NCBI GenBank assembly: GCA_043808095.1
Contig: JAZDFF010000011.1
Location: 48,030-112,029, forward strand
Direction: 5' to 3'
DNA length: 64,000 nucleotides
Source of the DNA: Candidatus Omnitrophota bacterium
GTDB taxonomy: Bacteria > Omnitrophota > Gorgyraeia > JAZDFF01
In this document: positions 6,501 to 55,643 of the stretch, piece by piece
Position numbering within the stretch: position 1 is the stretch's first letter
How the letters are laid out: each line of letters begins with the position of its first letter
Notes under the pieces: generated by a model
The model's input: the letters and a program-made list of their open reading frames with translations, nothing else
Told to the model about the DNA's origin: nothing
The model's database searches: none
Made by a program: the position numbers and the translations under genes

Positions 6501-6745
6501 GTTTCCGAGACCTTGGCGAAGGAAAACGTAAGTCGTAGCTCCGACGATACGTCGGAGCGCCTGCGCCTGCCTACTGGCAGGCGAGCATCCATACCGAAAA
6601 ACCGAGCTTCAAAACCTATGTACATAGTTTTGGCGGGTTTATCCCGTTACACCCAGAAAGCCCCGGTCTTAAGACTGGGATAAAATGGCAAATTAAAATT
6701 AACCATAGAAAATCCCCGTCCTTTATTGACAGGGTGTAATGGGGC

Positions 6746-7666: not shown

Positions 7667-7679
7667 AAGTCATATTAAC

Positions 7680-7840
7680 AGCTTCCTTCGTTTTCGAAGC
7701 TCGTCTCTCGGTATGGATGCTCGTATCGATGCTCGTCTTTAGAGGCTCGTCCTTAAAATATTTTTCGAGCATCGAGCTTCCAGCTTCGATACTAGCATCT
7801 ACAACGTCAGACGAACATCTAGCATCTGGTATCTATAATC
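7680..7840. repeat. imperfect palindromic element of GATGCTCGT / CGAGCATC words, centred on TTAAAATATTTT
   Basis: gaagctcgtctctcggtatggatgctcgtatcgatgctcg ... cgagcatcgagcttccagcttcgatactagcatc. It lies between trxB and grx. Confidence 0.5.
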
Positions 7841-7847
7841 TATCTTC

Positions 7848-8087
7848 TTAACCTATCCCTAACGCCTGGCTTATCCTCTCTTTATCAAACCCGACTATAA
7901 TCTCTCCGTCTATATCTAAGACCGGAACACCCATCTGTCCGGAGATACGGATCATCTCCTCGGCTGCCTCGTGGTTGGCGGCTACATCAATATCTTGAAA
8001 TGAGATGTTGTTTTCCTTTAAGAATTGCTTGGCCCGGATACAGAAAGGGCACGTAGAGGTGCTATATACCTTGACTGTTTTATCCAT
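7848..8087 (-). CDS. glutaredoxin-like protein
   Basis: 79 aa with a CPFC active site in a thioredoxin fold. Confidence 0.75.
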   Translation of the reverse strand: MDKTVKVYSTSTCPFCIRAKQFLKENNISFQDIDVAANHEAAEEMIRISGQMGVPVLDIDGEIIVGFDKERISQALGIG

Positions 8088-8110
8088 GCATTGCCTCCTG
8101 GTATAATCGT

Positions 8111-8222
8111 TTAAGGGTCAGGAAGGGATAGTAGGAATCAGTAAGGGTTAGTAGGGGAGTTTAAAATTTTTAACCTTTCTAACCCTTTCTATCCCCTGCT
8201 ATAACCTACTAACCCCTAAACG
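8111..8222. repeat. ~110-nt G-arm/C-arm palindromic element, copy 1
   Basis: A left arm of GGGWTAG words and a right arm of CTAWCCC words flank a TTTAAAATTTTT centre. A near-identical architecture occurs at 24800-24912. Confidence 0.7.
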
Positions 8223-8255
8223 TACTGTAATTGTTTTATGAAGTTTATAGGATGC

Positions 8256-8732
8256 CTAAATAGATGCTCTTAAATCCAACAACTGCTTTAAGTGGCTTTG
8301 TTCTTGAGCAACCAAATTATCTATTGCCTTATGATCGCTTATTGGAACCACCTTCTTCATCCCCTCATAAAAAACAACTGAGTCCTTTTCAAACTTTATG
8401 CCGATGTCTACAGCTTCTTTATCGCCTTTAATTTTTTGCGCGATTTCGTTTCCTTTATTTTCCTGGGTAAACACATATTCTACGGCCAAAGCGCTCATAT
8501 AAGCCAGGTATTCTCCAGGATAAGATTCTGGCGGCTCATATCTGCCTACCGACTCCAGCATCTCTTGAAAGACAATAATGTGTTTTTCTTCCTCGCCTTT
8601 AAGAAATACAAAGACTTTCTTTATCCTGGGATCCCGGGTTTGACCTGCTATGGTGTTATAAAAATCCCTGCCATTTTTCTCAATCTGAATTCCCAACTCC
8701 ACTATCTCGCTACCTGAAAAAATATTGGCCAT
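8256..8732 (-). CDS. rubrerythrin-family (erythrin-like) ferritin-fold protein without a rubredoxin domain
   Basis: 158 aa with two E..E/ExxH di-iron motifs (EEKHI, EQSHL). Confidence 0.6.
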   Translation of the reverse strand: MANIFSGSEIVELGIQIEKNGRDFYNTIAGQTRDPRIKKVFVFLKGEEEKHIIVFQEMLESVGRYEPPESYPGEYLAYMSALAVEYVFTQENKGNEIAQKIKGDKEAVDIGIKFEKDSVVFYEGMKKVVPISDHKAIDNLVAQEQSHLKQLLDLRASI

Positions 8733-8734
8733 AA

Positions 8735-9205
8735 TTATCCTCCTGCCTTTATTCTATGCGGTGTAAGATCGACTAATTCTTTCACCTCCATGACAATCAT
8801 ATATTGCGGCTTTGGTAAAAGCGCCTCGGGATGCCTGGGATGGCCTTTCTCGCCGCGAAGATTCTTGATTATCCTCTGCGAAATTCTACCGGTTATCTTT
8901 TCATCCCAGGTTTTGATAATTTCAGGACTAAACTCATCCTCCTTGATAATCTTGCCCCTACCCTTCAGGCAATAGCCTTTAAATTTATGTTCATCTACCG
9001 CCGTAATACTCATTTGAGGATTGTATTTTAAATTATCAAACGTCTTGCCCTGATAAAGATCGAGTAAATAAACAAATCCTTCGGGTTCTATCTTTACCAA
9101 TCCCTTACAGGCCTCATGCGGCATTCTGTCTCTACCAATAGTAGAAACAATGACGAAATTCTGATTAGAAAAGAAATTTATTATCTCTTCTGTCAGTTTT
9201 TTCAT
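8735..9205 (-). CDS. pyridoxamine-5'-phosphate-oxidase-fold (FMN-binding split barrel) protein
   Basis: 156 aa with the PNPOx-like pattern ...FVIVSTIGRDRMPH... Confidence 0.5.
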   Translation of the reverse strand: MKKLTEEIINFFSNQNFVIVSTIGRDRMPHEACKGLVKIEPEGFVYLLDLYQGKTFDNLKYNPQMSITAVDEHKFKGYCLKGRGKIIKEDEFSPEIIKTWDEKITGRISQRIIKNLRGEKGHPRHPEALLPKPQYMIVMEVKELVDLTPHRIKAGG

Positions 9206-9281
9206 TAAGAGAATCTGACTCCCTGCAACTAAATATTTGCCTCGGCTATCCAGCGGCCGTGGACATTACAGTCCTCAATGA

Positions 9282-9725
9282 CTATAAGCCTGCCTCGCTA
9301 ATCCAGGCACCGTGCAGATTACAGAGCTCTATTACGCTAAGTTTGCCACTTGAAACCTTAAGGTGGAGCGCAGCTGCTGGATTGAGCTTATCAGGAGTTA
9401 AGATTACCCTAGAAATAAACTCATTGTCTATATAAAAGTCGATGTGAATAATATAGTGCTTGGCTTCCATAGGGTGTTGAATCTGGCCAATTTTTACATG
9501 CACATCTTGACAATCCTCGGGGATTAAACTACATTTTTTTACAACAGTAATAATCGGCAGGTGCTTTTTCTCTAACTCGGTTAGATTATTTACATCCTGG
9601 GCAGTCTTTATAGCATCCCCTCTTTCTTCAAAAGCCGTCTTAGGTGCACCACACACAGGACATCTCTCTGGTGCACTACCATTTATAGATATAAACCCGC
9701 AAACCTTACATACATATCCTTTCAT
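9282..9725 (-). CDS. superoxide reductase (desulfoferrodoxin/neelaredoxin family) with an N-terminal rubredoxin-like Cys4 knuckle
   Basis: CKVCGF...CPVCG is followed by the EKKHLP (E-K-HVP) motif, an H..H..H.C..H ligand set and LCNLHG. Confidence 0.7.
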   Translation of the reverse strand: MKGYVCKVCGFISINGSAPERCPVCGAPKTAFEERGDAIKTAQDVNNLTELEKKHLPIITVVKKCSLIPEDCQDVHVKIGQIQHPMEAKHYIIHIDFYIDNEFISRVILTPDKLNPAAALHLKVSSGKLSVIELCNLHGAWISEAGL

Positions 9726-9744
9726 AGCATTAGCCCCCTTTCAT

Positions 9745-10311
9745 TTAACCAGAAACGATTGCTTGCCCTGAATCATAAGCCTTTTTTAAAACCTCTGGTT
9801 GTTTTAGTATACTTTCCTTTCCATCAATGCCTGTACAGAAAAGCTCACCCTTATAGTCTGCATCAATTGTAGCAAAGAAATTTTTAACGATCGATTTGGC
9901 ATTTTCAAAGAAATCTTTCCTCTTAGAGCCTTCTACGGAAAAAAAATAACCTTTCTTGCTTTTTTTAAATATATCCTTCCCCAATATATACTTTGCCCTC
10001 CAGATACACTGAAAACGATCTATCATCATTTTTGTCTGGGCAGTTATGCTCCCAAAAAATATAGGGGATGCCAGGACAATAACATCTGCAGCTTCAATTT
10101 TTTTATAGAGAAGCTGCATATCATCTTCTACTATGCAGGTGCCATCATCCCGTAGTTCGTCGCACTCCAAGCAAGGAGAAAATTTAAGTCTGGCTAATTC
10201 TACCTTTTCTGTTTTGGCTCCTTTTTCTTTAGCTGCCTCTAGTACCTTGCTAAGCAAGATATCGGTATTACCGCCTATCCTGGGGCTACCCATTATGCCT
10301 AAAATATTCAT
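9745..10311 (-). CDS. NAD(P)H-dependent FMN reductase / iron-sulfur-flavoprotein-like (flavodoxin fold)
   Basis: 188 aa. MNILGIMGSPRIGGNT is a flavodoxin-like start, and a CLEC...C cysteine cluster is present. Confidence 0.55.
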   Translation of the reverse strand: MNILGIMGSPRIGGNTDILLSKVLEAAKEKGAKTEKVELARLKFSPCLECDELRDDGTCIVEDDMQLLYKKIEAADVIVLASPIFFGSITAQTKMMIDRFQCIWRAKYILGKDIFKKSKKGYFFSVEGSKRKDFFENAKSIVKNFFATIDADYKGELFCTGIDGKESILKQPEVLKKAYDSGQAIVSG

Positions 10312-15888: not shown

Positions 15889-16284
15889 CTATAATAAAGA
15901 CCCTACGCTGATACTTCGCAATTCCCTAACCACATATTTTTCGATTTTATTTATTTTTCTTCTTAAGGCGCAGGTTCTGGTATTAGGGCAAACAATCTTT
16001 TTTAGGAAACACTCGTTTAATTTAAACGGCCCCTGGAATATCTCTAATAAATCCATGATTAAAATTTTGTCGGCTGGGATATTAAGCGAAAACCCACCGC
16101 CTAATCCTTTATACGATTCAAGAACGCCTTTCTTATTTAGTACCTGAAGGATCTTTCTCAAAAACGGATTAGGTATTTTAAGGGCCTTGACTAATTGCCT
16201 GACCGAAACGACTTTATTTTTTGACTTGGCAAGATAGCAAAGAGCCCTGATTGCATAATCGGTATCTCTGGTTATTAATTTCAC
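15889..16284 (-). CDS. Rrf2-family transcriptional regulator (IscR-like, three Cys ligands)
   Basis: The N-terminus is a wHTH. KGLGGGFSL matches the Rrf2 hallmark, and CPNTRTC supplies cluster ligands. Confidence 0.8.
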   Translation of the reverse strand: MKLITRDTDYAIRALCYLAKSKNKVVSVRQLVKALKIPNPFLRKILQVLNKKGVLESYKGLGGGFSLNIPADKILIMDLLEIFQGPFKLNECFLKKIVCPNTRTCALRRKINKIEKYVVRELRSISVGSLL

Positions 16285-26307: not shown

Positions 26308-26748
26308 TTATATGGCATAACTAAATGCCCCTTTACTTACTTTTAATTGGTTAGCCAGATCTTCAAAGGTGATGTTATCAATGATATCAGAGGTTGCCTC
26401 TGCTACCTGGTTCCATATGCCTCTAAACACGCACCTATATAAATCACTGCATCCTGAATAATCTTTTCCTATACAACCGATCGGTTCAATCGGGCCATCC
26501 ACAAAACGGATAACCTCACCCAACCTTATCTGGCAAGGTTGCCTAGCCAAGAGATATCCTCCTTCTTTTCCGCGCCTGCTCTCTACGAATCCGCCGCGTT
26601 TTAAATCCAGGAGTATCCTCTCTAAAAATTTAATCGGGATATCCAAACGTTTAGCCAACTCAGAGATAGTAACCACCCCGCTGCCATAATGTATGGCCAG
26701 ATCCAGAACTGTCTTTAAGGCATAATCTCCTTGATACGTTATACGCAT
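26308..26748 (-). CDS. Rrf2-family regulator (CymR/IscR-like), head of the sulfur-amino-acid gene string
   Basis: 146 aa. RRGKEGGYLLAR is an Rrf2 hallmark, and three Cys residues are present. Confidence 0.8.
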   Translation of the reverse strand: MRITYQGDYALKTVLDLAIHYGSGVVTISELAKRLDIPIKFLERILLDLKRGGFVESRRGKEGGYLLARQPCQIRLGEVIRFVDGPIEPIGCIGKDYSGCSDLYRCVFRGIWNQVAEATSDIIDNITFEDLANQLKVSKGAFSYAI

Positions 26749-42130: not shown

Positions 42131-42535
42131 TCAGTCTTTCTTTATATCCGCTTTTTTAAAAACGTTCTTTACAAAATCCAAATATTCACGGCTATCCTTT
42201 TCACCCACAAAGAATCCGCCGTCATAAAGATTAAAATTGCGTTCCTGTCTCATCTTGTTGCCAAGCACGATGATATCTTCATCTTTCAGTATATAGCTCA
42301 GTTTCTCCATGATCTTAACATGGTGGCCGGTTGTACTTCTTATTTTATGCCCCTTCTTGGCAATTAAAACTATGCCTAATTTTATGAGGGCATCGTAACT
42401 GAATTTGAAAATAACATCCGGAATATCCGATGACTCGGCTATTTGGAGATCATGCAAAGCAGATTTTGAGAATTGCGCAATTTGCTCTTGTTTAAATGGC
42501 AGTTTTTGAAAGTATTGCCTTTCAAAATTAATCAT
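42131..42535 (-). CDS. HEPN-domain protein (toxin of a HEPN/MNT pair)
   Basis: 134 aa. An Rx4HH motif (IRSTTGHH) sits in a helical domain. Confidence 0.55.
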   Translation of the reverse strand: MINFERQYFQKLPFKQEQIAQFSKSALHDLQIAESSDIPDVIFKFSYDALIKLGIVLIAKKGHKIRSTTGHHVKIMEKLSYILKDEDIIVLGNKMRQERNFNLYDGGFFVGEKDSREYLDFVKNVFKKADIKKD

Positions 42536-43110
42536 GGGAGCCTTATAGTCTTGGTTTTAAAGATACGGCTTATAAAAGGGTCTTTAGCCTTTTTCTTTGC
42601 GGAAAAATCTTGCGGGCTTAAATTCGTTATATTGAATTCTCTGCCTGTATCCTTCTGCAATTCAGCGATAAGCCTCTGTAAACCCAGAACAGAGTGCGAA
42701 CCAATAGCCAGAATGTCAATATCGCTTGATGAATCCATTTTATTGGTTGCGTATGAGCCGAATATATATGCCTCTTTAATCCCCTTGATATTCCCAAATA
42801 TATCTTTAAGCCTTTTCTCTATGCCGTATGTCTTAAGGAAAATCTGGCGGTAATGCTCTAAAATCGGGTTATCCTTGGCAAGAAAGAAATACCTTTCTTT
42901 CCCGCGGAATTCGCTCTTTAAAAGACCGTTTTTTTCGAATTCCTTAAGCTTGGCCTCGGTGTTTTTGGGATCTAACTCTAAAATCCTTGCCAGTTCGTTA
43001 ATGTATGCTTGAGCATCCGAATTAAGAAAAAAGTAATCCAGCAGTTTTATGGCCACCTTTGAACGTAGGGATATCATCTTTTCACCATGTTTATGGTAAT
43101 ATGTTACCAT
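42532..43110 (-). CDS. minimal nucleotidyltransferase (MNT) with an N-terminal wHTH; antitoxin partner
   Basis: GSYATN...DSSSDIDIL is a GS...DxD nucleotidyltransferase motif. The gene ends in ATGA, overlapping the HEPN gene. Confidence 0.6.
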   Translation of the reverse strand: MVTYYHKHGEKMISLRSKVAIKLLDYFFLNSDAQAYINELARILELDPKNTEAKLKEFEKNGLLKSEFRGKERYFFLAKDNPILEHYRQIFLKTYGIEKRLKDIFGNIKGIKEAYIFGSYATNKMDSSSDIDILAIGSHSVLGLQRLIAELQKDTGREFNITNLSPQDFSAKKKAKDPFISRIFKTKTIRLP

Positions 43111-43139
43111 AATCGATTATTTTGTCAAGAAGATATTTT

Positions 43140-43430
43140 GGGGGTGGGCAGGCGCAACAAAGTATCCTTCGACTCAGTTTACCCTGAGCTTGCCGAAGGG
43201 CTCAGGGTGGATTCTCCGCGCCCAAATGGTTAGTCTATCGAACCATAAATGACAACGCCCTTCGCTATCCAAGGCTTACTTTACCACATAATAAAATGGT
43301 GAGCAAGCCCTGAACGAAATGAAGGGCGCGTCGAACCACTCCCCTTCGTGGACGACCTTCGCAACACTTCGACAAGCTCAGTGCAAGCTTTTTTGGAGGA
43401 ATTTAAGAGCTATTGTTTAAGTCAGGAAGC
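43140..43430. repeat. MITE-family repeat block (GTCGAAGG / CCCTGAGC...GCTCAGGG hairpins)
   Basis: tccttcgactcagtttaccctgagcttgccgaagggctcaggg ... ggtgagcaagccctgaacgaaatgaagggcgcgtcgaacc. Confidence 0.65.
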
Positions 43431-43437
43431 AGAGAGA

Positions 43438-44517
43438 TTACTTGAAGAAATGTCTGGTTCTCAAGCATACTCTCACTAACATTAACATAACTGGCACTTC
43501 AATCAGCACTCCAACAACAGTTGCAAGAGATGCCCCAGAAGATAACCCAAAAAGCATCGCTGATGTGGCAATGGCAACTTCAAAGTGATTACTCGCCCCT
43601 ATCAATGCCGAAGGAGCTGCATCCACGTATGGTAATTTTAACCATTTTGCTAATCCGTATGTTAAGGCAAAAATTAAACAAGTCTGAATAAAAAGTGGTA
43701 TTGCTATTAAAAATATCACCTGAGGTTGTTTTATAATCAATCCCCCCTTAAACGAAAATAAAAGGATAAGCGTAACAAGTAACGCCCCTATAGAGACTGG
43801 CGTTAAATAATGAAGAAATTTTTCTTCAAACCACTTCAACCCTTTTTTGGCAATTATATATTTTCTAGAATGATACCCTAAGAAAAGCGGCAAACCCACA
43901 TAGATAATGACTGATAATACTATTGTCTGCCAGGGAATAGGCATTTTGTTCACCCCTAAAAGCCACCCTCCTAAAGGCGCATAAAGAAATAACATTGTAA
44001 GTGAGTTTATCGCTACCATAACAAGAGTATGCCCATCGTTACCTCTTGCTAAATGACCCCAAACAAGAACCATAGCTGTGCAAGGAGCAATCCCGAGCAA
44101 TATACAGCCAGCAATATAAGAACGGAAAAGCTCAACCTGAGCACCGCCCTTAATGATCTCAACGCCAGGAAGCCAACCCTTAAAGACAAAGCCAAGAAAA
44201 AAAGTGGCAATAGCGAGCATGGTAAAAGGCTTGATACACCAGTTTACAAACAAAGTAAGCAATACTGGCTTAGGCGTCTTTCCCGCTTTAACAACCTCGG
44301 CAAAATCAATCTTCACCATAATCGGATACATCATAAAGAATAGACATATCGCAATGGGAATGGATACTTGATATATCGAAAATTGATCAAGCGTAACAGC
44401 CATCTGAGGAAATAGCTTACCAAGAATTATGCCAAGTCCGATGCAAAGGACTACCCATCCGGTGAGATATTTTTCAAAAAAACCTAATTTTCGTTCTTCG
44501 TAGATAACTCGCTCCAT
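43438..44517 (-). CDS. acr3: arsenite efflux permease, ACR3 family
   Basis: 359 aa with a BASS/ACR3 fold. The ACR3-typical proline-rich TM pattern is present. Confidence 0.8.
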
Positions 44518-44529
44518 AGATTTTTCCTT

Positions 44530-45225
44530 CTACATAAAATTGGTAATGATATAACCCCAGATAAAATAAATTCCGACAAGTATAAAGATAATACCAGTAA
44601 TCTTTCTCGTACATAATTCAAGCGCCGCTACTTTACGGAACCATTTTGAAAAGGACGTTACGCCTATTGTAATACCCAATGCAAATACCACTACAGGAAT
44701 ACCTGTGCCTATACCGTAAAAGAAAGGCAAAATAATTCCATAACTGCTTTTTAACGCGAGAGGAATTAAGCTGCCAAAAAATAATGCCGCAGCGATTGGA
44801 CAGAAAGATAGGGCAAATATTGCTCCGAGCGTAAAAGAACCTTTTATTCCTGATTCGACTAATGCAGTTTGCTTCTGTTGCGAAACTGAGAAAATCGGAA
44901 TGTCCATCTTTATTATATCTAATAGAAACAACCCAACTATCAGTAAAACAGGGCCTAATATTTTGTTGATATATTTCTGCAAGAAATTGGCTGTTGCGGG
45001 AACGCTTGCTAATGAAGTTATGATAACTACCCCTAATACAGCATAAGTAAGCATACGTCCAACGGTATAAGCAATGCTAGATTGCAACACGAGCCTGGGG
45101 TGGCTTATTTTTTTTGATAAGAACGATATAGCTGCTATATTTGTAGCAAGAGGACACGGGCTTATAGAAGTAAGAATACCGAACCATAATGCAAAGACAA
45201 AAGGTAGTATAATCTGAATCATCAC
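44530..45225 (-). CDS. CcdA/DsbD-type transmembrane thiol-disulfide transporter
   Basis: 231 aa. Two TM cysteines are present (SPCPL and SFCPIAA). Confidence 0.7.
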   Translation of the reverse strand: MMIQIILPFVFALWFGILTSISPCPLATNIAAISFLSKKISHPRLVLQSSIAYTVGRMLTYAVLGVVIITSLASVPATANFLQKYINKILGPVLLIVGLFLLDIIKMDIPIFSVSQQKQTALVESGIKGSFTLGAIFALSFCPIAAALFFGSLIPLALKSSYGIILPFFYGIGTGIPVVVFALGITIGVTSFSKWFRKVAALELCTRKITGIIFILVGIYFIWGYIITNFM

Positions 45226-45641
45226 TGATTATCCTTTAAGTAATTATTGATTTCGGTTGTCACGTAGTTAAAGAATTTCCTTTTATCTCTCACATATTCC
45301 CATATCTTCGTAAGATTCTTATGCCGTATTTCTTTACCATTTTCTACGCGTGAGATTATAAGTGATTTCGTATAAAGTTGGTAATCATTCACGAAGTGCT
45401 CATTGCCTTTTTCTTCAACGTTTACTGTCTTAACGACAAGTAAGCCGTTAGCCAATTCATTCTTAAAATTCTCCTCAATTGCCTCCTTTGTATACTGTTC
45501 CATCTTATGACAAGTTGGACAACGGACATTACCGTGAAAATAATAAGCAATTATCTTAGCATCAGCACTAAACGCCAATGTTGCGCCTATTGCTAACACT
45601 ACCGTTAAAATGATTGGTGCGAGAAAACGCTTTATAACCAT
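45222..45641 (-). CDS. periplasmic thioredoxin-like CxxC protein
   Basis: A signal peptide precedes an RCPTCH motif. It overlaps ccdA. Confidence 0.5.
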   Translation of the reverse strand: MVIKRFLAPIILTVVLAIGATLAFSADAKIIAYYFHGNVRCPTCHKMEQYTKEAIEENFKNELANGLLVVKTVNVEEKGNEHFVNDYQLYTKSLIISRVENGKEIRHKNLTKIWEYVRDKRKFFNYVTTEINNYLKDNQ

Positions 45642-45859
45642 TTTCTAATCTCCTCTGCTGATAAAGTTTTTCCTGATGATTTGACTTTACCGTCTATAAC
45701 AAGAGCGGGCGTCATCATAACTCCGTATTCTATAATTTTATCCATATCCTCAACTTTAATAACCTCTGCCTGAACACCTTTTTCTTCAACCGCTTTCTTT
45801 GCGTTTTCATAAAGCATTTTACATTTAGGACAACCCATCCCGAGAATTTCGATTTTCAT
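45632..45859 (-). CDS. redox-active disulfide protein 2 (small thioredoxin-family protein)
   Basis: 75 aa, MKIEILGMGCPKCK..., with a CPKC active site. Confidence 0.75.
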   Translation of the reverse strand: MKIEILGMGCPKCKMLYENAKKAVEEKGVQAEVIKVEDMDKIIEYGVMMTPALVIDGKVKSSGKTLSAEEIRKWL

Positions 45860-45874
45860 TTTGCCTCCGTTATT

Positions 45875-46657
45875 TTATCTTTTTACGGCAGAAACTTTTA
45901 TGCTTGCTACTGCATCTTGAGCACCCTCAAGATTATCAAACATGGCATCCACCGGATAACTCGATTCGCTGATCACTTTAACATCCTTAAAACCAGCCAT
46001 TGCTATGAATTTTAGATATTCGTCTTTTTTAATCGCGCCGGCAAGGCAACCCACATATGCCTCAACCGATTCTTTGATAGCATCCGATAATTCCTTAACC
46101 AACACCAGATCCGAAACCATCAACCTGCCACCGGGCTTCAATACCCTAAAAGCTTCCTTAAATACCTTATTTTTATCCGGAGAGAGGTTAATAACGCAGT
46201 TTGATATGATCACATCGACCGAGCTATTATCAACCGGCAACTTTTCGATTTCGCCAAGCCTGAATTCTACATTCGTATAGCTGTCTTTTTTGGCATTCGC
46301 TTGTGCTTTTTCAATCATCTCCGGCGTCATATCAACGCCAATGACACGGCCGGCTTTCCCAACTTTAGGAGAAGCCAGAAATACATCAAACCCTGCACCG
46401 CTGCCCAAATCAAGCACCACATCGCCTTCTTTTAAGGATGCGAGTGCTACCGGATTGCCACAACCAAACCCCAGATTCGCGCCTTCAGGAACAGCATTCA
46501 TTTCCACATCGCTATATCCTACCGTCTTACTTATAGTTTTAGCTTGGCTTGTGCCGCTACAACAAGAACTTGAAGAACAACATGAAGTAGTCTGCTTCAC
46601 TGCTTTTGCGTAACCTTCCCTGACAATTTTCTTGATTTCATCTGCTTTTCCTTTCAT
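45875..46657 (-). CDS. arsM: arsenite S-adenosylmethionine methyltransferase
   Basis: SAM-MTase (VLDLGSGAG) with conserved Cys residues in FGCGNP and SNCVINL, plus a Cys-rich N-terminus. Confidence 0.8.
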   Translation of the reverse strand: MKGKADEIKKIVREGYAKAVKQTTSCCSSSSCCSGTSQAKTISKTVGYSDVEMNAVPEGANLGFGCGNPVALASLKEGDVVLDLGSGAGFDVFLASPKVGKAGRVIGVDMTPEMIEKAQANAKKDSYTNVEFRLGEIEKLPVDNSSVDVIISNCVINLSPDKNKVFKEAFRVLKPGGRLMVSDLVLVKELSDAIKESVEAYVGCLAGAIKKDEYLKFIAMAGFKDVKVISESSYPVDAMFDNLEGAQDAVASIKVSAVKR

Positions 46658-46658
46658 C

Positions 46659-46823
46659 CTATATCCTTTCCCGCTTCATCTTTGAGGCGTTTTCCCTGTT
46701 GATTTGTTTCTTTATCACTTCCTTAACGAAATCCAACGCCCCGTCTTTATCATGATCGATCACAATTTTCTCTACTTTGAGCAAATCATCATCCGTAAGA
46801 TTAATAATCTTTTTATTCGTCAT
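46659..46823 (-). CDS. 54-aa hypothetical protein (below the ORF-track cut-off)
   Basis: MTNKKIINLTDDDLLKVEKIVIDHDKDGALDFVKEVIKKQINRENASKMKRERI*. It is tightly packed between the permease and arsM. Confidence 0.4.
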   Translation of the reverse strand: MTNKKIINLTDDDLLKVEKIVIDHDKDGALDFVKEVIKKQINRENASKMKRERI

Positions 46824-46829
46824 TCGTCC

Positions 46830-48002
46830 CTACTTTACGATAAATCCAAAAATCATTCCGCATATAGTTGCCATAACAACAACAAGACCAGCATATACGA
46901 TTGTTTTCTTGGTACCAATAATACCTCGTATAACCAACATGCTGGGTAAACTTAAAGCGGGCCCGGCCAAAAGAAGCGCCAAAGCAGGCCCCTTGCCCAT
47001 ACTTGAGCCGATCAAACCCTGTAAAATTGGCACTTCGGTAAGTGTAGCAAAATACATAAAAGCGGCAACTATCGAAGAAAAGAAATTTGCGCGCAGGGAA
47101 TTACCGCCCACTAGCATTTCAACAAAACTTGAAGGAATAACTCCCTCATGCCCAACTCTACCCAGTAAAAATCCCGAAATGAGCACCCCTCCCAGCAAGA
47201 GAGGAAGAATTTGCAAAGCGAAACCCCATGTTGCAGATGTCCATTCCTTTAATTCTTCTTTCTTGAACCATTTGAAAATCATAAGGGCGAGGCTAAAAAG
47301 AGAAAAACCGGCAATCCACCATTTATATTGGTAAATTAATGACCATATTCCCTGATCGCCCTCAAGAGATTTGCCCCAGTTGGCAAAAACGAGAAAAGCA
47401 ACCATAGAAGCAAAGTACAGAATTGTCTTGCCTAAAGAGCGATTTTCTTTTATCTCGCCTATGGCAAAATCGCCGTTTGCATGGCGCTGTCTTTCTTCTT
47501 TTAAGAATATCAAGTGCATTAATAAGCCGATAACGACGCTAAATAGAACTGCACCTATGGCCCTTGCTAATCCAAGTTGCCAACCAAGGATGCGGGCGGT
47601 AAGAATTATTGCAAGGACATTGATTGCCGGGCCTGAATATAAAAAAGCAATCGCTGGTCCTAAGCCAGCGCCCCTTTTATATATGCCAGCAAAAAGCGGT
47701 AAAACTGTACAAGAACATACTGCAAGGATTGCTCCTGAAACAGAGGCAACGCTGTAAGAAAGGAATTTGTTTGCCTTTACCCCGAAATATTTCATCACCG
47801 AGGCCTGGCTGACAAAAACAGAAATTGCGCCGGCTATAAAGAAAGCTGGCACAAGACACAAAAGCACATGTTCCCGGGCATACCACTTTACCAATGCCAA
47901 AGATTCAAAGATTGGGTTTCTAAAAGGCAAAAGTTCTACCGGCAGAAAGTAACATCCTAAGAATACAGCCAGTATTAAGAAAAACCTATTCTTCTCTTTC
48001 AT
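46830..48002 (-). CDS. COG0701/DUF318 predicted permease
   Basis: 390 aa, multi-TM. It overlaps the DUF134 gene by 4 nt. Confidence 0.65.
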   Translation of the reverse strand: MKEKNRFFLILAVFLGCYFLPVELLPFRNPIFESLALVKWYAREHVLLCLVPAFFIAGAISVFVSQASVMKYFGVKANKFLSYSVASVSGAILAVCSCTVLPLFAGIYKRGAGLGPAIAFLYSGPAINVLAIILTARILGWQLGLARAIGAVLFSVVIGLLMHLIFLKEERQRHANGDFAIGEIKENRSLGKTILYFASMVAFLVFANWGKSLEGDQGIWSLIYQYKWWIAGFSLFSLALMIFKWFKKEELKEWTSATWGFALQILPLLLGGVLISGFLLGRVGHEGVIPSSFVEMLVGGNSLRANFFSSIVAAFMYFATLTEVPILQGLIGSSMGKGPALALLLAGPALSLPSMLVIRGIIGTKKTIVYAGLVVVMATICGMIFGFIVK

Positions 48003-48304
48003 TTCTTTCCTCGCATAATAATCTTACAGCAACCGCCTTCGATTCTTATTGCCTTAACATTTACTAAAGCATCAGCTATTTTTTTATGAGCTGAATCAAC
48101 GATTCTCGAAATAGTAGAACGATGGACTTTCATTTTTTTAGCAATTTTTTCTTGGTCTAACCCTTCTAAATCGCTAAGTCTTATAGACTCAAACTCATCA
48201 ATGGTCAAAATAACCCCTTTTAATTTATTTAATGGTTTGCATTGTGGACGGAAACACCTTTCTCCTGGCTCACATTTAACCCATCTTATTTTTTTAGGTC
48301 TCAT
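47999..48304 (-). CDS. DUF134/UPF0251 predicted DNA-binding protein
   Basis: 101 aa. The pattern MRPKKIRWV...P...FRP...L..DE.E.IRL.D..GL matches DUF134. Confidence 0.6.
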   Translation of the reverse strand: MRPKKIRWVKCEPGERCFRPQCKPLNKLKGVILTIDEFESIRLSDLEGLDQEKIAKKMKVHRSTISRIVDSAHKKIADALVNVKAIRIEGGCCKIIMRGKK

Positions 48305-48326
48305 TTGATCCCCGCTTTTTTATTTC

Positions 48327-48375
48327 GCACATATGTGCATAATAAGTATACCACATGCTATCTTTTCTTGTCAAA
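48327..48375 (-). promoter_or_regulatory. promoter TTGACA-N18-TATACT with the palindromic operator GCACATATGTGC overlapping the transcript start
   Basis: The minus strand reads tTTGACAagaaaagatagcatgtggTATACTtattatGCACATATGTGCgaaat, then the DUF134 ATG. Confidence 0.4.
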
Positions 48376-48831
48376 TAAAAACCTACCTAATAAACTAGAG
48401 AGGTATCTTGCCAATTTCTTATATAATGCCCAGAAATGCATCCTGATATCGTCGGATTCTGTCAATAATTTCATTATATACAAGCCATTATATAAAAGCC
48501 ATTTTAGAGATACATTGCAAGTAATTGAAAGAAAATTTAACCTGCTCTTTGATAAAAGCTTAAACCCTCCATTTCATTTACTAGAGATAAATCAAGCCAA
48601 TTCCTAGAAAATGGCCATAATAAATCAAAGAAAAATCAAATATCTCAGCTAAAAAGCATTTACTAGGCACCATTTACTAAGATGGCTTTTAGAGATAATT
48701 AGCGCTATATTCGACGAGCTTTGGAAAGTGACTCTGAGATTTTGCAAGGAGGAGTAAATTTGATCGATTGATCTACCCAACAAATAAAAAATAATGCCCC
48801 AACTCTTTAAAACCTAAAGGCATAAAAAAAG

Positions 48832-48858
48832 CTCTGATTGAATTTGTCAATCAGAGCT
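48832..48858 (-). terminator. kdpD terminator (bidirectional hairpin)
   Basis: aaaaaaaGCTCTGATTGAatttgTCAATCAGAGCtttt. Confidence 0.7.
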
Positions 48859-49005
48859 TTTGACCTCTCTCGACGGAGAATGAGAGAGAAGAAACTGGCT
48901 CCCCCGCGAGGACTCGAACTAATACTTAATCCTGTTTGTATTTATCGCTCTAACCTTAATTATACTTAACCCTTCTTAACCGGGCTTAATCCTTCTAACT
49001 TGATA

Positions 49006-51186
49006 TTACTTTTCTGATTCAATTATTTGTGGCAACTCAGCAATAAGAGTATTTAAACGCTCTGTTTCTTGACGCATCTTCTCTATTAAGGCAGAACGCT
49101 TTGATTCATTATTTAGATTTTCCGGATTTAACAATTCCGAAGCTGTTTGAGAAATAGATGTTAACGGCTCAGTGAGTCCTGAGGAAAACGTAGTTAAAAG
49201 CAGATTACGTAGACGCTCATTCTCAATCCTAGATTCCGCATCAAGAGCTGCTGCAGCAAGCTGTGCACCTTCGACAGCCAAAGCAGTTTGATTGACGAAC
49301 ATCTCCAATATATGTAACTGTTCCGGGTCAACAAATTGTGTCTCCTGAGTCGGAAAAACTCCCAAAACTCCCACTGTTTTTTCTGCGCCAGTAAAAGGCA
49401 AGTACATACCGTTTGATCCGGGCAGAGTATCTGTACCCTTACCTGCGGATTTCTTATGCTCAAATACCCATTGTGCAACAGCCACCTCATTTGAATCTAG
49501 CGCTAATTGTACAACTTCACCAAACCGGGCTTCCAGCCTCTTGTTTTTATCCGGCACAAAAATAACTGCTCTGCACTTAAAAAAATCTTCGATATGCGAA
49601 AGTGCAATCTTAAACAATTCATCGGGATAAGAACTTTTTGAAAGCTCGTGGCTTAAGGCATAAAGCGTTTTAGTTCGGTCTTCACGAATCCCCATGTTAA
49701 TAGTTTGGCGCCTAAGTTGCCCAGTTAAATGCGCTATCATAAGACCAACGCCCAGCATCACTATAAATGTAAAAACATACTCAACATCTGCTACCGCAAA
49801 AGTAAAATATGGCCGCACAAAAAAGAAATCAAAAAATAAGACACTAAAAAACGATGCTATCATTGATATCCGGCGTCCATACCGGAAAGCAATCCAAGTT
49901 ACGCCAAGAAGGTAAACCATAATCAAATTAACTAGCGATAAGTGCAACAAAAGCAGAATCCAGTCAACTAAAGTACAAATAATAACAACGCCAATAGCCA
50001 GCCCCAGATTTTTCCAAGAAAAAGGAATCAAGGCAGGCGGCTTAAATTTAACCGGCTGCTCCTGGGTATCCCCGCTCAACAAATACAGATCAATGTCCTG
50101 GCATTTACGGGCTAATTTGTCAAATATTGAACCGAAAATCAATTCACGCAGCTTTGGTTTTCCAGGCTTTCCAATGATTATCTTTGTTACATTTTTTGAG
50201 CGGGCGTATGAAATTAATGTCTCTACGATATCCTGACCACTAAGCGTTACAATTTGAGCGCCCAATTTTTCCGCAAAATTAAGCATCTCGGACACCCTGT
50301 TTTTATCTTCCGGACGCAATTCGGCAAGAGGTTCAACATATGCCACGATCCACTCTACTCCCAAATCTAAAGCGATACGCTTACCCGCTCTGATTAATCC
50401 CATCGCAGAGGGGCTCGGACTTATACAGACCAAAAATCTATCCCTCACATTCCAAACTTTTGAAACAGCGTGTTCTTTTTTATATGACATCAATTTACTG
50501 TCAACATTGCGCTCTGTATAGCGCAGGGCCAATTGACGCAAAGCAATCAAATTACCCGGCTGGAAGAAATGTTCTGTTGCCGCTTGAGCTTGTTCACCAA
50601 GATATACCTTTCCTTCTTTTAACCGTTTGAGAAGCTCTTCGGTAGGAAGATCCACTAGCTCTATTTCGTCAGCCTGTTCGATAAATGTATCAGGAATAGT
50701 TTCGCGTACGATAACGCCGGTTACCTGAGCCACAATATCGTTGGCGCTTTCGCAATGCTGGACATTTAAGGTAGTATATACATCAATGCCTTGGTCGAGA
50801 AGTTCTTGGACGTCTTGCCAGCGTTTTGGATGACGAGAACCGGGAGCATTGGTATGTGCTAATTCGTCCACTAAAATAAGCTTTGGTTTTCTCTTTAAAC
50901 CAGCATCAATATCAAATTCACGCAACTGAACATTTTTATAAGAGATGATTTTAGGCGGGAGTATTTCGAGGCTTTCCAAAAGCGCTTCAGTCTCAGCGCG
51001 TTTATGAGTTTCTACATATCCGACCACAACATCAATACCTTCTTTTTTGCAGGCCCTGGCGGCTTCAAGCATCGAATAAGTTTTTCCGACACCCGCGACT
51101 GCTCCAAAGAAAATCTTAAGTTTACCGCGCTGGCTCTCTTCGGCTTTAACCTTAGCTAAGATTACATCAGGATCTGGTCTTTCCAT
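49006..51186 (-). CDS. kdpD: KdpD-like sensor protein without a kinase domain
   Basis: It has a KdpD N-terminal domain (GAVAGVGKTYSM), then USP, four TM helices and GAF. The DHp remnant reads SSGLTEPLTSI where SHELRTPLT is expected. There is no HATPase domain. Confidence 0.8.
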   Translation of the reverse strand: MERPDPDVILAKVKAEESQRGKLKIFFGAVAGVGKTYSMLEAARACKKEGIDVVVGYVETHKRAETEALLESLEILPPKIISYKNVQLREFDIDAGLKRKPKLILVDELAHTNAPGSRHPKRWQDVQELLDQGIDVYTTLNVQHCESANDIVAQVTGVIVRETIPDTFIEQADEIELVDLPTEELLKRLKEGKVYLGEQAQAATEHFFQPGNLIALRQLALRYTERNVDSKLMSYKKEHAVSKVWNVRDRFLVCISPSPSAMGLIRAGKRIALDLGVEWIVAYVEPLAELRPEDKNRVSEMLNFAEKLGAQIVTLSGQDIVETLISYARSKNVTKIIIGKPGKPKLRELIFGSIFDKLARKCQDIDLYLLSGDTQEQPVKFKPPALIPFSWKNLGLAIGVVIICTLVDWILLLLHLSLVNLIMVYLLGVTWIAFRYGRRISMIASFFSVLFFDFFFVRPYFTFAVADVEYVFTFIVMLGVGLMIAHLTGQLRRQTINMGIREDRTKTLYALSHELSKSSYPDELFKIALSHIEDFFKCRAVIFVPDKNKRLEARFGEVVQLALDSNEVAVAQWVFEHKKSAGKGTDTLPGSNGMYLPFTGAEKTVGVLGVFPTQETQFVDPEQLHILEMFVNQTALAVEGAQLAAAALDAESRIENERLRNLLLTTFSSGLTEPLTSISQTASELLNPENLNNESKRSALIEKMRQETERLNTLIAELPQIIESEK

Positions 51187-51223: not shown

Positions 51224-51802
51224 TCATTTCTTATAAGCATCTAACGCTAAATTTAGTTCCAGCACATTTACAACCGGCTCCCCTATAATTCCAAATAAAC
51301 GCCCAGAAGTATGCTTGGCGATGAGAATCCTAATTGTATCTTGTGATAATCCCCTAAGCCGTGCAATACGCGGAGCCTGATAATACGCCGCCGCTAAACT
51401 AATATGCGGATCCAGCCCGCTTGCTGATGAAGTAACTAAGTCAACCGGTATAGGAGTTGTATTGTCAGAATCGGCTAGCCTTAAAGCTTTAATGCGCGCT
51501 TTCACTGCCTCAAGTAATACCGGATTAGACGGCCCTAGATTTGAGCCTGACGAAGAAGCTGCGTTAAAAGAAACAGGCGATGTCGCTGAAACACGACCCC
51601 AAAAATACTTGGGATCATTAAATGCCTGGCCGATAAGAGATGAACCAACCGGCTTACCGTTTCGGTAGATTAAACTGCCATTGGCTTGATTCCGAAAAAA
51701 TACTTGAGCAATCCCGGTAATAAAAAGCGGATAAATAATGCCTGTCATTATTGATAAAACTATAAAAATTAGAATCGCTTGTTTTATTTGTCCCTTAAAC
51801 AT
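51224..51802 (-). CDS. kdpC: K+-transporting ATPase subunit C
   Basis: 192 aa, full-length KdpC. Confidence 0.9.
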   Translation of the reverse strand: MFKGQIKQAILIFIVLSIMTGIIYPLFITGIAQVFFRNQANGSLIYRNGKPVGSSLIGQAFNDPKYFWGRVSATSPVSFNAASSSGSNLGPSNPVLLEAVKARIKALRLADSDNTTPIPVDLVTSSASGLDPHISLAAAYYQAPRIARLRGLSQDTIRILIAKHTSGRLFGIIGEPVVNVLELNLALDAYKK

Positions 51803-51810
51803 ATTTGTCC

Positions 51811-53889
51811 TTATCGAACTAAATGTAGTGCCACTAAAACCATATCAATCAATTTTATCCCTATAAATGGCGCAATAATTCCGCCAACTCCATAGATAAA
51901 TAAATTATCACGTAAAAGCCGGCTTGCCGGCATCGGCTTATAATGAATGCCTTTTAATGCTAGAGGAATAAGAAATATAATAATAAGCGCGTTAAATATG
52001 ACCGCAGACAGAACCGCACTCCCAGGCGTAGACAAATGCATAATATTAAGTGCGCCAAGTGCCGGATATGTTCCTACAAAGGCAGCCGGTATAATAGCAA
52101 AGTACTTAGAGACATCGTTAGCGATACTAAATGTCGTAAGTGAGCCGCGGGTCATAAGAAGCTGCTTGCCAATTTCAACGATCTCAATAAGCTTTGTGGG
52201 ATTAGAATCAAGATCAACCATATTCCCAGCTTCCTTTGCAGCCTGCGTTCCGGTATTCATAGCAACAGCTACATCAGCCTGCGCAAGAGCGGGCGCGTCA
52301 TTTGTCCCGTCACCGGTCATTGCAACAAGCCTGCCCCTTTCCTGCATTTTACGTATATATTTAAGCTTGGTTTCAGGTGTGGCTTGCGCCAGAAAATCAT
52401 CCATACCGGCTTCAGCGGCAATTGCTGCGGCAGTCAAAGGATTATCTCCTGTAATCATTACGGTTTTAATACCCATACGCCTGAGTTCGGCAAAACGCTC
52501 TTTAATGCCGCCCTTAATAATGTCTTTTAGCTGAATTACCCCAAGCACATTATTATGTTCTGCGACAACCAAAGGTGTCCCCCCGCTTTTAGATATGGAA
52601 TCAATAGATGCCTTTAAATCTTCGGGAAATAAACCGTTGAGTTTCTTTACATAATCTTCGATAGCATCAACTGCTCCTTTTCTGATTTGCCTGCCATCGC
52701 CTAAATTAACTCCGCTCATCCGCGTTTGTGCCGAAAAGGGAATAAAATGTGCGCTAAGTTCATGAATTTGGCGCTCCCTGATGCCGTATTTCTCTTTAGC
52801 CAATACTACAATGCTCCTTCCTTCGGGAGTTTCGTCTGACAAGGAAGCAAGCTGAGCTGCATCGGCCAACGCTTCAGCACTAATTCCCTGAGACGGAAAA
52901 AAAGCTACCGCTTGTCTATTACCAAGTGTGATTGTTCCAGTTTTATCCAAAAGTAATACGTCCACATCTCCGGCTGCTTCTACTGCCCGACCCGATGTAG
53001 CGATGATATTTGCTTGAATCATCCTATCCATGCCAGCGATACCTATAGCAGACAACAATCCTCCAATAGTAGTAGGAATAAGACATACAAGCAATGCAAC
53101 TAATACCGTTACTGTAATAGGCTGGCCTTGACCGGCTGCGTTTACGCTATAAAGAGAAAATGGCAATAGCGTTGCTGTGGCTAAAAGAAAAATAAGCGTA
53201 AAAACTGCCAAAAGGATGCTAAGCGCGATTTCATTGGGAGTCTTCTGCCTTTTTGCTCCTTCAACCATCGCAATCATATGATCAAGGAATGTCTCTCCCG
53301 GATTAGAAGTGATACGGACCACAAGCCAGTCCGAAAGCACTTTTGTTCCGCCGGTAACAGCGCTGCGGTCTCCTCCGCTTTCGCGTATAACCGGAGCGCT
53401 CTCTCCAGTAATTGCGCTTTCGTCAACAGAAGCCACTCCCTCGATTACATCTCCATCCATTGGGATAATGTCGCCTGCCTCAACGAGAATAACATCTCCT
53501 TTGCGAAGTGTAGTAGCAGATACTTTCTCCTGAGCGGAGCCATAATTTGGCTTTAAAAGTTTTCTAGCAATAGTATCCTTGCGGGCTTTTCTTAAACTCT
53601 CAGCCTGAGCTTTTCCGCGGCCTTCAGCCATAGCTTCGGCAAAATTGGCAAAAATAAGGGTAAACCACAACCAAAGTGTTATAGCTAATATAAAACCTGC
53701 GGGAGCTTCCCCACGCCCCATTAAGGCTTGGAAATATAAACCCGTAGTCAAAAGACTCCCCACTAAAACTACAAACATTACGGGATTTTTAATCTGATGT
53801 CGGGGATCTAATTTTTTTATTGAATTGACGGCTGCCGGCCCACAAATAGCCGGATCAAATAAAGATTTAGCTTTATGTGATTTACTCAT
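51811..53889 (-). CDS. kdpB: K+-transporting P-type ATPase subunit B
   Basis: DKTGTIT, TGDN and [10 protein letters not shown] motifs are present. Confidence 0.95.
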
Positions 53890-53897
53890 AAAAACTC

Positions 53898-55643
53898 CTA
53901 AATACTGCGCAACATAAGATGCTCAACAATCGGTCCCAAAGCCAAAGCCGGAAAAAATGTAAGCGCTCCAACGATTAAAATAACCATAACTAAAAATATA
54001 ATAAAAAGCGGCGTATGCGTAGGTAGTGTCCCTGGACTTGCCGGAACAATCTTTTTCTTGGAAAGCGAACCTGCTATGGCTAGCATCGGTATGGCCAGCC
54101 AGTATCTAGCAAAAAACATTGCTAATCCTTGGGCTATATTATAAAAAAGATTATTAGTAGATAATCCAGCAAACGCACTCCCATTGTTATTACTTGCCGA
54201 TGAAAAAGCATATAATATTTCACTAAATCCGTGAGGCCCGGGATTTAAAATCGAGTTTTTCCCTGCGGGCACAATAACTGAAATTGCTGTGCCTATAAGA
54301 ACAAGTATAGGCGGTATTAAAATCATAAGTGAAGCCATTTTCATTTCGTAGCTTTCGATTTTCTTACCTAAATATTCGGGAGTCCTGCCAATCATAAGTC
54401 CGGAAATAAAAACAGCAATAATTACAAAAGCGATCATGCCATAAAGACCGGAACCAACTCCGCCAAAGATTACTTCTCCTAATTGCATAAGCCACATCGG
54501 AATCATTCCACCCAGAGGCATATAAGAATCGTGCATTGAATTTACCGAACCATTGGATGCCGCGGTTGTAGCCGTTGCCCAAATAGCAGAATTTACTATT
54601 CCAAAACGCGCTTCCTTCCCTTCCATGTTACCACCAGCCTGAGATGTTGAATAATTTTGATCAATACCGAGATTGTTAAACAATGGGTTTCCTTTTTGCT
54701 CGAAATGAATACATGTCCATAGGCAAGGAATAAAAATAATCAACATCGCAATTAACAACGCCCAACCTTGTCGACGGTCTCTAACCATATACCCGAACGT
54801 ATAACATAATGCAGCAGCTATTAAAAGTATGGCCAAAACTTCCAGAAAGTTTGACAAAGGCGTGGGGTTCTCAAAAGGATGAGCAGAATTGACATTAAAG
54901 AACCCGCCCCCATTAGTGCCTAGTTGTTTAATGGCAACCTGCGATGCAGCAGGGCCTAAAGCAATTACTTGTTCTGTAACAGCCTTTCCATCCGTATCTT
55001 TCGAAACCTCAAGCAAGGCTACTTTTGCGCCAGGTTTAAAAGTCTGGACAACCCCTTGAGATACTAAAATAAAAGACAGAAGTAATGCGAGAGGAATTAA
55101 AATATAAAGTACGGATCTAACCAAATCTACCCAAAAGTTACCGATTGTTTCTGCCTGTTTCTGGATAAATCCCCTGATTGAAGCTACAAGAATTGCCATA
55201 CCCGTTGCCGCAGAAACAAAGTTTTGCACAGTTAACCCAAGCATCTGCGTAAAATAACTCAAAGTTGTTTCGCCACCGTAACTTTGCCAATTTGTATTAG
55301 TTGCAAAACTTACCGCCGTATTAAAGGCCAAGTCTGGCTTAACCGCAGGCATAGACATGGGGTTCAAAATAAAGTGCGCTTGAAAACGCTGAAGGGCGTA
55401 TACAACAATTATACCTATAATATTAAACAGCATCATGCTAACGGCATAAGTTTTCCAGGACATTTCTTGTTCGGGTTTAACTCCACAGGTTCGGTAAATT
55501 AACTTTTCTAACCATACAAACCAAACATTTAAACCTGCCGGCTTGCCTTCGTAAATTCGCGCCATATAAATCCCGAGCGGCTTAACCATAAAAAGCAATA
55601 CAGCAATATAGACGGTGCTTTGAATGAGATTATTCCAATTCAT
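53898..55643 (-). CDS. kdpA: K+-transporting ATPase subunit A
   Basis: 581 aa with a 10-TM KdpA channel-like fold. Confidence 0.9.

Follow-up and report, generated by a model that had tools for sequence, protein, structure and literature searches.

The first gene of an arsenic-resistance (ars) operon in a Candidatus Omnitrophota genome encodes a small DUF134 protein, which we read as an autoregulatory and probably metalloid-responsive repressor that stands in for ArsR and has the palindrome GCACATATGTGC as its operator. We put the probability of this reading at roughly 0.8. The operon lies on the minus strand at 43438-48304 of a stretch of 64,000 nucleotides (contig JAZDFF010000011.1), and this whole stretch is called the window below. 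An earlier note on the same DNA had proposed that the DUF134 protein acts as a repressor here, and a comparison of about 90 related operons speaks in favour of the proposal. The DUF134 gene came first in all 80 species-level loci that were fetched, and a palindromic site preceded it in 79 of them. The residues of its putative recognition helix covary with the sequence of this site and correctly predicted the site in six of six further loci. In addition, the gene occupies the place of arsR in an orthologous operon, and the cysteines of its product are particular to the ars-linked clade. Judging from these comparisons, the DUF134 protein very likely works like ArsR. As far as we know, the repressors at the head of prokaryotic ars operons that have been characterised so far are all ArsR/SmtB proteins.

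The DUF134-headed operon and its candidate operator

Eight open reading frames (ORFs) on the minus strand make up the region, with spacings that range from an overlap of 10 nt to a gap of 15 nt, and together they are a single arsenic-resistance operon. Profile searches gave the gene order DUF134-arsP-orf54-arsM-arsE-arsF-arsG-acr3. The earlier note had described the same eight genes from the letters of the DNA; every ORF was found where it had been placed, the family assignments were upheld by the profile searches, and the description of the region was accurate wherever it could be checked. The genes and the elements upstream of them are the following.

47999-48304, minus strand: DUF134/UPF0251 gene, 101 amino acids (PF02001, 79.3 bits, cut-off 27)
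46830-48002, minus strand: ArsP_1-family permease, 390 amino acids, with a CSC motif (PF03773, 261 bits)
46659-46823, minus strand: protein of 54 amino acids without a family match
45875-46657, minus strand: ArsM, As(III) S-adenosylmethionine methyltransferase (NF008823, 355.8 bits, cut-off 263)
45632-45859, minus strand: ArsE, 75 amino acids, cytoplasmic thioredoxin-like protein with CPKC (PF13192; TIGR00412, 111.9 bits, cut-off 62)
45222-45641, minus strand: ArsF, thioredoxin-fold protein anchored in the membrane, with CPTC and a predicted outward orientation (NF040494, 112.6 bits, cut-off 60)
44530-45225, minus strand: ArsG, CcdA/DsbD-type membrane protein with a GTG start (NF040495, 268.3 bits, cut-off 200; Pfam DsbD_2, PF13386, 61 bits, cut-off 24.9)
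43438-44517, minus strand: ACR3 arsenite efflux transporter (TIGR00832, 398 bits, cut-off 282.8)
48369-48374, minus strand: -35 hexamer TTGACA (11 of 12 consensus positions together with the -10 hexamer)
48345-48350, minus strand: -10 hexamer TATACT with an upstream TG (extended -10), behind an 18-nt spacer
48323-48342, no strand: candidate operator with the core palindrome GCACATATGTGC at 48327-48338 (family consensus TTATGCACATATGTGCATAA)
48827-48861, minus strand: perfect 15-bp hairpin with a T-run, the terminator of the upstream kdpD-like gene, which insulates the ars promoter

A scan with one genome per species yielded 368 DUF134 relatives, and the best 80 of these (67-86% identity) were fetched. 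The loci stem mostly from Omnitrophota, plus some Auribacterota and Thermodesulfovibrionia bins. In each of them, the DUF134 gene was directly followed by an ars gene on the same strand, namely by ArsP (47 loci), a shorter ArsP-like permease (19), ACR3 or an ACR3-like gene (10), ArsF (2) or ArsM (2). The content further downstream is modular: ArsE was present in 57 loci, ArsG in 44, ArsF in 42, ACR3 in 33, ArsM in 18 and ArsC in 14, and the smallest units among the relatives consist of DUF134-ACR3, DUF134-ACR3-ArsC or DUF134-ArsP. An invariant first gene ahead of resistance genes that are reshuffled is the signature of an operon regulator.

The permease that follows DUF134 in about 19 loci (L060:10428-11384; also L042, L043, L046, L050, L051, L059 and L077) has about 318 residues and a TPFCSCSSIP motif, and it is 20-30% identical to the 390-residue permease of the window. 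Two distinct PF03773-type classes are thus found under the same regulator.

A dyad of 16-20 bp with the consensus TTATGCACATATGTGCATAA was found 11-36 nt (mostly 13-21 nt) before the DUF134 start in all but one of the 80 loci. When the 1.1 Mb of fetched locus DNA was searched with up to two mismatches, 78 of the 79 motif matches lay at this position. Upstream of the dyad, TTGACA with at most one mismatch was present in 73 of the 80 loci. In 39 loci the first bases of the dyad are also part of the -10 box (TATAAT-GCAC), and in 25 loci as well as in the window the dyad begins about 6 nt past the -10 box. Either placement is typical of a repressor that acts on a strong promoter. From centre to centre the half-sites are separated by 10 bp, the distance that one expects with a dimeric helix-turn-helix (HTH) protein.

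In the window, TTGACA-N18-TATACT was the top sigma-70 match within 43000-49000, and both this promoter and the palindrome were located exactly where the earlier note had seen them. The candidate operator spans the predicted transcription start, and its promoter-distal flank is degenerate compared to TTATGCACATATGTGCATAA. The palindrome GCACATATGTGC is the sole site of its kind across the 64-kb window. A 12-bp palindrome on its own may well occur in 64 kb, and it is the conservation at 79 of 80 orthologous positions that makes this one significant. Because the hairpin with its T-run terminates the kdpD-like gene, the operon has its own promoter. An Rfam scan of 43000-49100 returned one ylbH match, which was below threshold, lay on the kdpD terminator and was dismissed as chance. 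The 700-nt spacer between this terminator and the ars promoter also holds three copies of a 28-nt AT-rich direct repeat (48471-48512 and 48670-48697) and a 15-nt inverted pair (48493-48507/48677-48691).

Covariation of the recognition helix and the operator

The dyads fall into three symmetric types, and residues 60-67 of the DUF134 protein change with them.

Operator ATGCAC..GTGCAT: 44 loci including the window, residues 60-67 VHRSTISR (44 of 44)
Operator ATGAAC..GTTCAT: 29 loci, residues 60-67 ISRPTFSR (Ser61 and Phe65 in 29 of 29)
Operator ATGCAT..ATGCAT: 6 loci, residues 60-67 IHQSTISR (6 of 6)

Across the 79 classified loci, positions 61 and 65 followed the operator type without exception, and the five columns with the highest mutual information with the operator type were 65, 61, 50, 54 and 63, which all lie in residues 50-65. 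Locus L077 pairs a hybrid dyad with a hybrid helix (ISRSTFSR). The PF02001 match covers residues 2-93 of the protein (model positions 6-95 of 98), and an AlphaFold2 model predicted helices at residues 35-46, 51-58 and 62-81, with a predicted local distance difference test score (pLDDT) of 83-90 in the core. This placement of the helices would assign the covarying residues to the HTH and to the start of the recognition helix.

In a neighbour-joining tree that excluded residues 48-70 and is short and noisy (about 73 columns), the operator type changed at least seven times, and the helix changed each time too. This is a sign that the link between helix and operator is not merely that of two ancient clades. 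The link was also seen in six further loci that had been reached via ACR3 or the 54-residue gene, not via DUF134. In each of the six, the dyad was the one that the helix predicted, and one of these loci has a 59%-identical protein, the helix HQSTISR and the operator ATGCATACGTATGCAA. If these residues act as a specificity code, the substitutions H61S/S63P/I65F would shift the preference of the protein to ATGAACATATGTTCAT, and R62Q would shift it to ATGCATATGTATGCAT.

The same data bear on the idea that the palindrome is a hairpin of the 5′ leader RNA, or that it is bound by another protein such as an ArsR encoded at another locus, with a different role for DUF134. The symmetric changes (GCAC/GTGC, GAAC/GTTC and GCAT/ATGC) would preserve the stem of a hairpin as well, and the site of the window is located at or past the predicted start. 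However, the left arm lies within the -10 box in 39 loci and would be left out of the transcript there, which led us to reject the hairpin; a hairpin would moreover leave the covariation with a protein helix unexplained. Residues 61-65 of DUF134 predict the operator variant (His/Ser61, Ile-Val/Phe65) in the 79 loci and in the six additional ones, and each locus has a single such site, always ahead of DUF134, which argues against a hairpin and another binding protein alike. We give this idea very little credence.

The fold of the protein could also be taken to mean that DUF134 drives the operon, either as an activator resembling sigma region 4 or as a fragment of an alternative sigma factor. 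In Foldseek searches the HTH core resembled sigma-70 region 4 and DeoR HTH domains, and weak Pfam and NCBIfam matches likewise pointed to sigma-70 region 4 and to the -35-binding domains of extracytoplasmic function sigma factors. The Sigma70_r4 score of 22.5 bits, on the other hand, is below the cut-off of 24.1, and the protein has no region 2. The dyad lies on the -10 box or on the start, not on the -35 box, and the promoter is already near consensus in 73 of the 80 loci. Because of the operator position and the sub-threshold Pfam score, we rejected an activator or sigma role, which is scarcely probable, and regard the likeness as one of fold only.

Displacement of ArsR and the cysteines of the ars-linked clade

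The earlier note had pointed out that the operon contains neither ArsR nor an arsenate reductase. For ArsR, this holds for the whole 64-kb window, in which motif regular expressions, Pfam scans of 20 small ORFs and tblastn with an ArsR sequence detected none. The DUF134 protein itself had no match to PF01022 (HTH_5) or PF12840 (HTH_20) in the Pfam scan. When metagenome contigs were scanned for ACR3, four loci of this sample were headed by DUF134, and about 32 had an ArsR-like gene upstream of ACR3. The ACR3 closest to that of the window (89%) is encoded at locus L084, in an operon (4996-9800) with the order ArsR-ArsP(72%)-ArsM-ArsE-ArsF-ArsG-ACR3. Its first gene encodes a canonical ArsR (PF01022, 72.8 bits) with an LCVCEI motif and a C-terminal CC, and the inverted repeat upstream of it, ATATAGC..GCTATAT, differs from the operator of the window. 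At both the nucleotide and the translated level, homology between the two loci runs from arsP through the end of acr3 and nowhere beyond. Based on this comparison, DUF134 occupies the exact ArsR slot of orthologous operons. A replacement in situ via common flanks was considered and rejected, as L084 and the window share no flanks. The two loci form a natural comparison pair. In another locus (L028:9402-10285), an ArsR-like gene is divergently oriented and directly upstream of a DUF134-headed ars operon, so both regulator types can co-occur.

Five cysteines are present in the DUF134 protein of the window: Cys11, Cys17 and Cys22 (in K-C-E-P-G-E-R-C-F-R-P-Q-C) and the pair Cys92-Cys93 (in G-G-C-C). 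C11, C17 and C93 do not vary among 53 close homologues, at least 90% of which also have C22. An exhaustive HMMER search returned 3,420 representative DUF134 clusters, of which only three scored at E ≤1e-30. In the best 150 representatives, the five positions mostly carry Phe, Tyr (79 of 150), Gly (121 of 150), Asn and Tyr, and many of these proteins have zinc-ribbon or NifX-like C-terminal extensions instead. That other residues stand at these positions family-wide indicates that the ars-linked clade gained the cysteines, at places that are conserved in the rest of the family. The tails that bear them (residues 1-25 and 91-101) were modelled with a pLDDT below 50, which would fit tails that become ordered upon ligand binding. 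The S3 sites of ArsR proteins have arisen several times. By analogy with those proteins, the five cysteines of DUF134 may bind As(III).

A mechanism can be proposed from these features. The 101-residue protein would form a dimer, of which the HTH, with the recognition helix beginning at residue 61, would bind the half-sites ATGCAC and GTGCAT. Bound at the -10 box or at the start, it would block RNA polymerase and thereby repress its own operon. Binding of As(III), and possibly of methyl-As(III) or Sb(III), to Cys11, Cys17 and Cys93, with or without Cys22 and Cys92, would release the protein from the DNA. Among the induced products, ACR3 would export As(III), ArsM would methylate it and ArsP would probably export the methylated product, while the thiol module of ArsE, ArsG and ArsF would run upon induction.

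It is conceivable that DUF134 autoregulates at the palindrome but senses the thiol, redox or iron-sulphur (Fe-S) status of the cell; its cysteines would then bind a metal cluster or engage in disulfides, and the operon would serve as a general thiol-stress unit. The protein is rich in cysteine, the operon encodes ArsE, ArsF and ArsG, and other DUF134 proteins carry zinc-ribbon tails and adjoin NifX-like proteins that bind the FeMo-cofactor. This alternative is nevertheless unlikely, as the smallest units, DUF134-ACR3 and DUF134-ACR3-ArsC, lack redox genes, DUF134 takes the ArsR slot of an orthologous operon, and the cysteines are specific to the ars-linked clade. These observations fit better with a repressor that responds to metalloids.

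Several points weigh against this reading of DUF134. All of its support is comparative, and nearly all of it comes from metagenome-assembled genomes (MAGs) of uncultured organisms. Shared ancestry is a partial confounder of the link between operator type and helix type, and the switches were counted on a tree of about 73 columns. The Foldseek matches of the core were weak (E about 0.04 or worse). A few members have other residues in place of Cys22 and Cys92, and the cysteines could serve to hold zinc or an Fe-S cluster, with redox or thiol stress as the signal. An ArsR-like gene lies within 9 kb downstream on the same strand in two of the 80 DUF134 loci and somewhere in the fetched DNA of four, so the two regulators are not strictly exclusive. 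Furthermore, the search for ArsR covered the 64-kb window, and the source genome may encode one elsewhere.

The DUF134 protein of the window is 100% identical to an NCBI 'DUF134 domain-containing protein' of a Candidatus Omnitrophota MAG. An NCBIfam search with it gave only a sub-threshold 'hypothetical protein' model, and a sequence search of the PDB found no solved DUF134 structure (best E = 0.2). A literature search on DUF134, UPF0251, PF02001 and COG1342 found no functional paper, and most of the matches for 'DUF134' concerned DUF134x families. As far as this search can tell, a function for the DUF134 family is new, whereas the operon type is already known. General-type DUF134 paralogues with a zinc-ribbon tail, which belong to the same genomes or to others, are located at L046:4440-5336, L050:12880-13250 and L150:17290-17730, where they do not adjoin ars genes; the one in L046 is followed by a NifX-like protein (PF02579). 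Each of them is preceded by a dyad at the -10 box in the same layout (TTATTGGCATATGCCAATAA, TTATTAGCATATGCTAATAA and TTATGAGCATATGCTTATAA). These three examples hint that the whole DUF134 family might consist of autorepressors.

The ArsEFG module, neighbouring genes and known systems

ArsE, ArsF and ArsG are encoded by adjacent genes in the order E-F-G beside the arsenite pump, and all three scored above the curated cut-offs. The TIGR00412 model 'MTH895/ArsE' is the same model as 'redox-active disulfide protein 2', the name under which the earlier note had listed ArsE. That note had described a CcdA/thioredoxin-like electron relay between the methyltransferase and the efflux pump. The structural side of this description, a DsbD-like thiol anatomy, is sound, but the relay corresponds to the already named ArsEFG module. 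The ArsF model (pLDDT 84) has a transmembrane helix at residues 8-26 followed by a thioredoxin fold, and its top PDB matches were all thioredoxins (E from 1e-4 to 2e-3), including the C-terminal domain of DsbD. As modelled, ArsE, the CcdA-like ArsG and ArsF have the layout of a DsbD that is split into separate proteins. The ArsEFG module was reportedly described by Chen, Zhang and Rosen in 2019 (Environ Sci Technol 53:6182), a paper that PMC9144182 cites. According to the family names and a secondary citation, it reduces the nitro group of trivalent roxarsone or nitarsone and exports the resulting amine.

The earlier note had further suggested that thiol chemistry substitutes for ArsC, in other words that a relay of ArsE, ArsG and ArsF replaces the arsenate reductase in this lineage. 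In agreement with this, ArsC was absent from the 64-kb window, in which motif regular expressions, Pfam scans of 20 small ORFs and tblastn with an ArsC sequence and with the ArsC of a relative gave nothing; the latter search also detected no ArsC remnant downstream of acr3 or anywhere else in the window. The reductant-relay anatomy of the three proteins would suit such a role as well. However, an ArsC of the low-molecular-weight phosphatase type closes the operon at its 3′ end in 14 of the 80 relatives, and seven of these 14 also carry ArsF or ArsG. The operons most similar to that of the window, which also contain the 54-residue gene (L081-L083), end in ArsG-ACR3-LMWPc, and ArsEFG and ArsC are found together in L081-L083, L088, L114 and L153. 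Since ArsC coexists with ArsEFG in relatives, its lack in the window is local, and it is not surprising in an anaerobe that is exposed chiefly to As(III) and needs no ArsC. In addition, ArsEFG is a named module that is assigned to aromatic arsenicals, and PMC9144182 groups ArsG with organoarsenical efflux transporters and ArsE and ArsF with organoarsenical-resistance proteins. We therefore consider a replacement of ArsC by the thiol relay very unlikely, and this suggestion of the earlier note was not sustained.

About 330 nt downstream of acr3, where the relatives have ArsC, the window holds a nucleotidyltransferase gene (Pfam Polbeta/NTP_transf_2) and an overlapping ORF of 134 amino acids without a Pfam match (42131-43110). 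They may be a toxin-antitoxin-like pair. The spacer past acr3 is richer in GC and contains a 34-nt imperfect inverted repeat (43165-43198/43367-43400) that is 74% complementary, with arms 168 nt apart and no Rfam match.

Regarding the other genes of the operon, the arsenite efflux pump that marks an ars operon is present in the form of ACR3, and the arsP reading frame overlaps the DUF134 stop by 4 nt. The permease matched the SaoE and SO_0444 models only below threshold; from the operon context, it probably exports organoarsenicals (methylarsenite). In ArsM we read the cysteine motifs CC...CC, GCGNP, SNCV and GCLAGA and the S-adenosylmethionine motif VLDLGSGAG, and we take these cysteines to be the catalytic ones of characterised ArsM proteins. 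The 54-residue ORF has 149 homologues of 52-88 residues, nearly all of them of 53-54 residues, with 69-93% identity among the 120 listed. Judging from this sequence conservation, the ORF is a genuine, conserved gene. In five of six loci (L038, L081-L083 and L088) its place is between arsP and arsM of DUF134-headed operons, and in the sixth (L054) it is also directly before arsM, but after an ArsG-like gene.

Upstream of the operon, 49006-51186 encodes a KdpD-like protein of 726 amino acids with KdpD sensor, Usp, DUF4118 and GAF domains, for which Pfam reported no histidine-kinase (HisKA/HATPase) domain. The ORFs that follow on the same strand at 51224-55643 have sizes compatible with kdpC, kdpB and kdpA. 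Elsewhere in the window, an oxidative-stress cluster with rubrerythrin, a PNPOx-like protein and desulfoferrodoxin together with two Rrf2-family regulators (8256-9725, 15889-16284 and 26308-26748) fits an anaerobic lifestyle.

Taken together, a wider reading may be put forward tentatively, at somewhat less than even odds. In it, DUF134/UPF0251 would be an unrecognised family of small autorepressors that act at TTAT-N6/N6-ATAA dyads on their own -10 boxes, with a specificity code in residues 61, 62, 63 and 65 and with sensor tails that can be swapped. The ars clade would be an independently invented As(III) sensor that has taken the place of ArsR in several hundred Omnitrophota and neighbouring lineages, and ArsEFG would in nature be a DsbD-like relay that protects or reduces envelope thiols under arsenic stress, not a nitroreductase. 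If the main reading of DUF134 as the repressor of the operon is right, a second, unrelated scaffold does the job of ArsR, which would be a clean case of non-orthologous displacement, and As(III)-binding cysteine sites would once again be seen to evolve readily. The DUF134/UPF0251 family, with its more than 3,400 representative clusters, would gain a first testable function, operator and specificity code. Annotation would profit too, because in Omnitrophota and related uncultured phyla the regulator would escape surveys based on ArsR, and a repressor of 101 residues with its operator would be a compact option for arsenic biosensors.

The general DUF134/UPF0251/COG1342 proteins are the nearest relatives for comparison, and they share with the ars clade the TTAT-N6-N6-ATAA palindromes at the -10 box. 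The ars clade differs from them in lacking the zinc-ribbon or NifX-type C-terminal extensions, in having cysteines in place of the conserved Tyr17, Gly22 and C-terminal residues, and in being tied to ars genes, whereas the general type is tied to NifX-like genes. The ArsEFG module of the window differs from ArsEFG as described in that its host is an uncultured anaerobe, in whose habitat synthetic nitro-aromatic arsenicals are unlikely, and its anatomy points to a relay of disulfide reductant. As in the DsbD and CcdA-ResA systems, there is a membrane component (ArsG, which matches DsbD_2 and DsbD_TM), an anchored thioredoxin fold with CxxC (ArsF) and a candidate cytoplasmic CxxC donor (ArsE). 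Here, however, these are three separate small proteins in an ars operon, with no context of cytochrome c maturation. With ArsR/SmtB proteins such as the R773 ArsR, DUF134 has in common that it is encoded by the first gene, consists of about 100 residues, is linked to a dyad operator at the promoter of its own gene and has cysteines that would be available to As(III). Yet the two are not homologous: DUF134 belongs to PF02001 and has a three-helix core like that of sigma region 4 rather than a winged helix, its cysteines are in the N- and C-terminal tails and not in or beside the HTH, and its operator differs in sequence from that of the ArsR-headed operon in L084.

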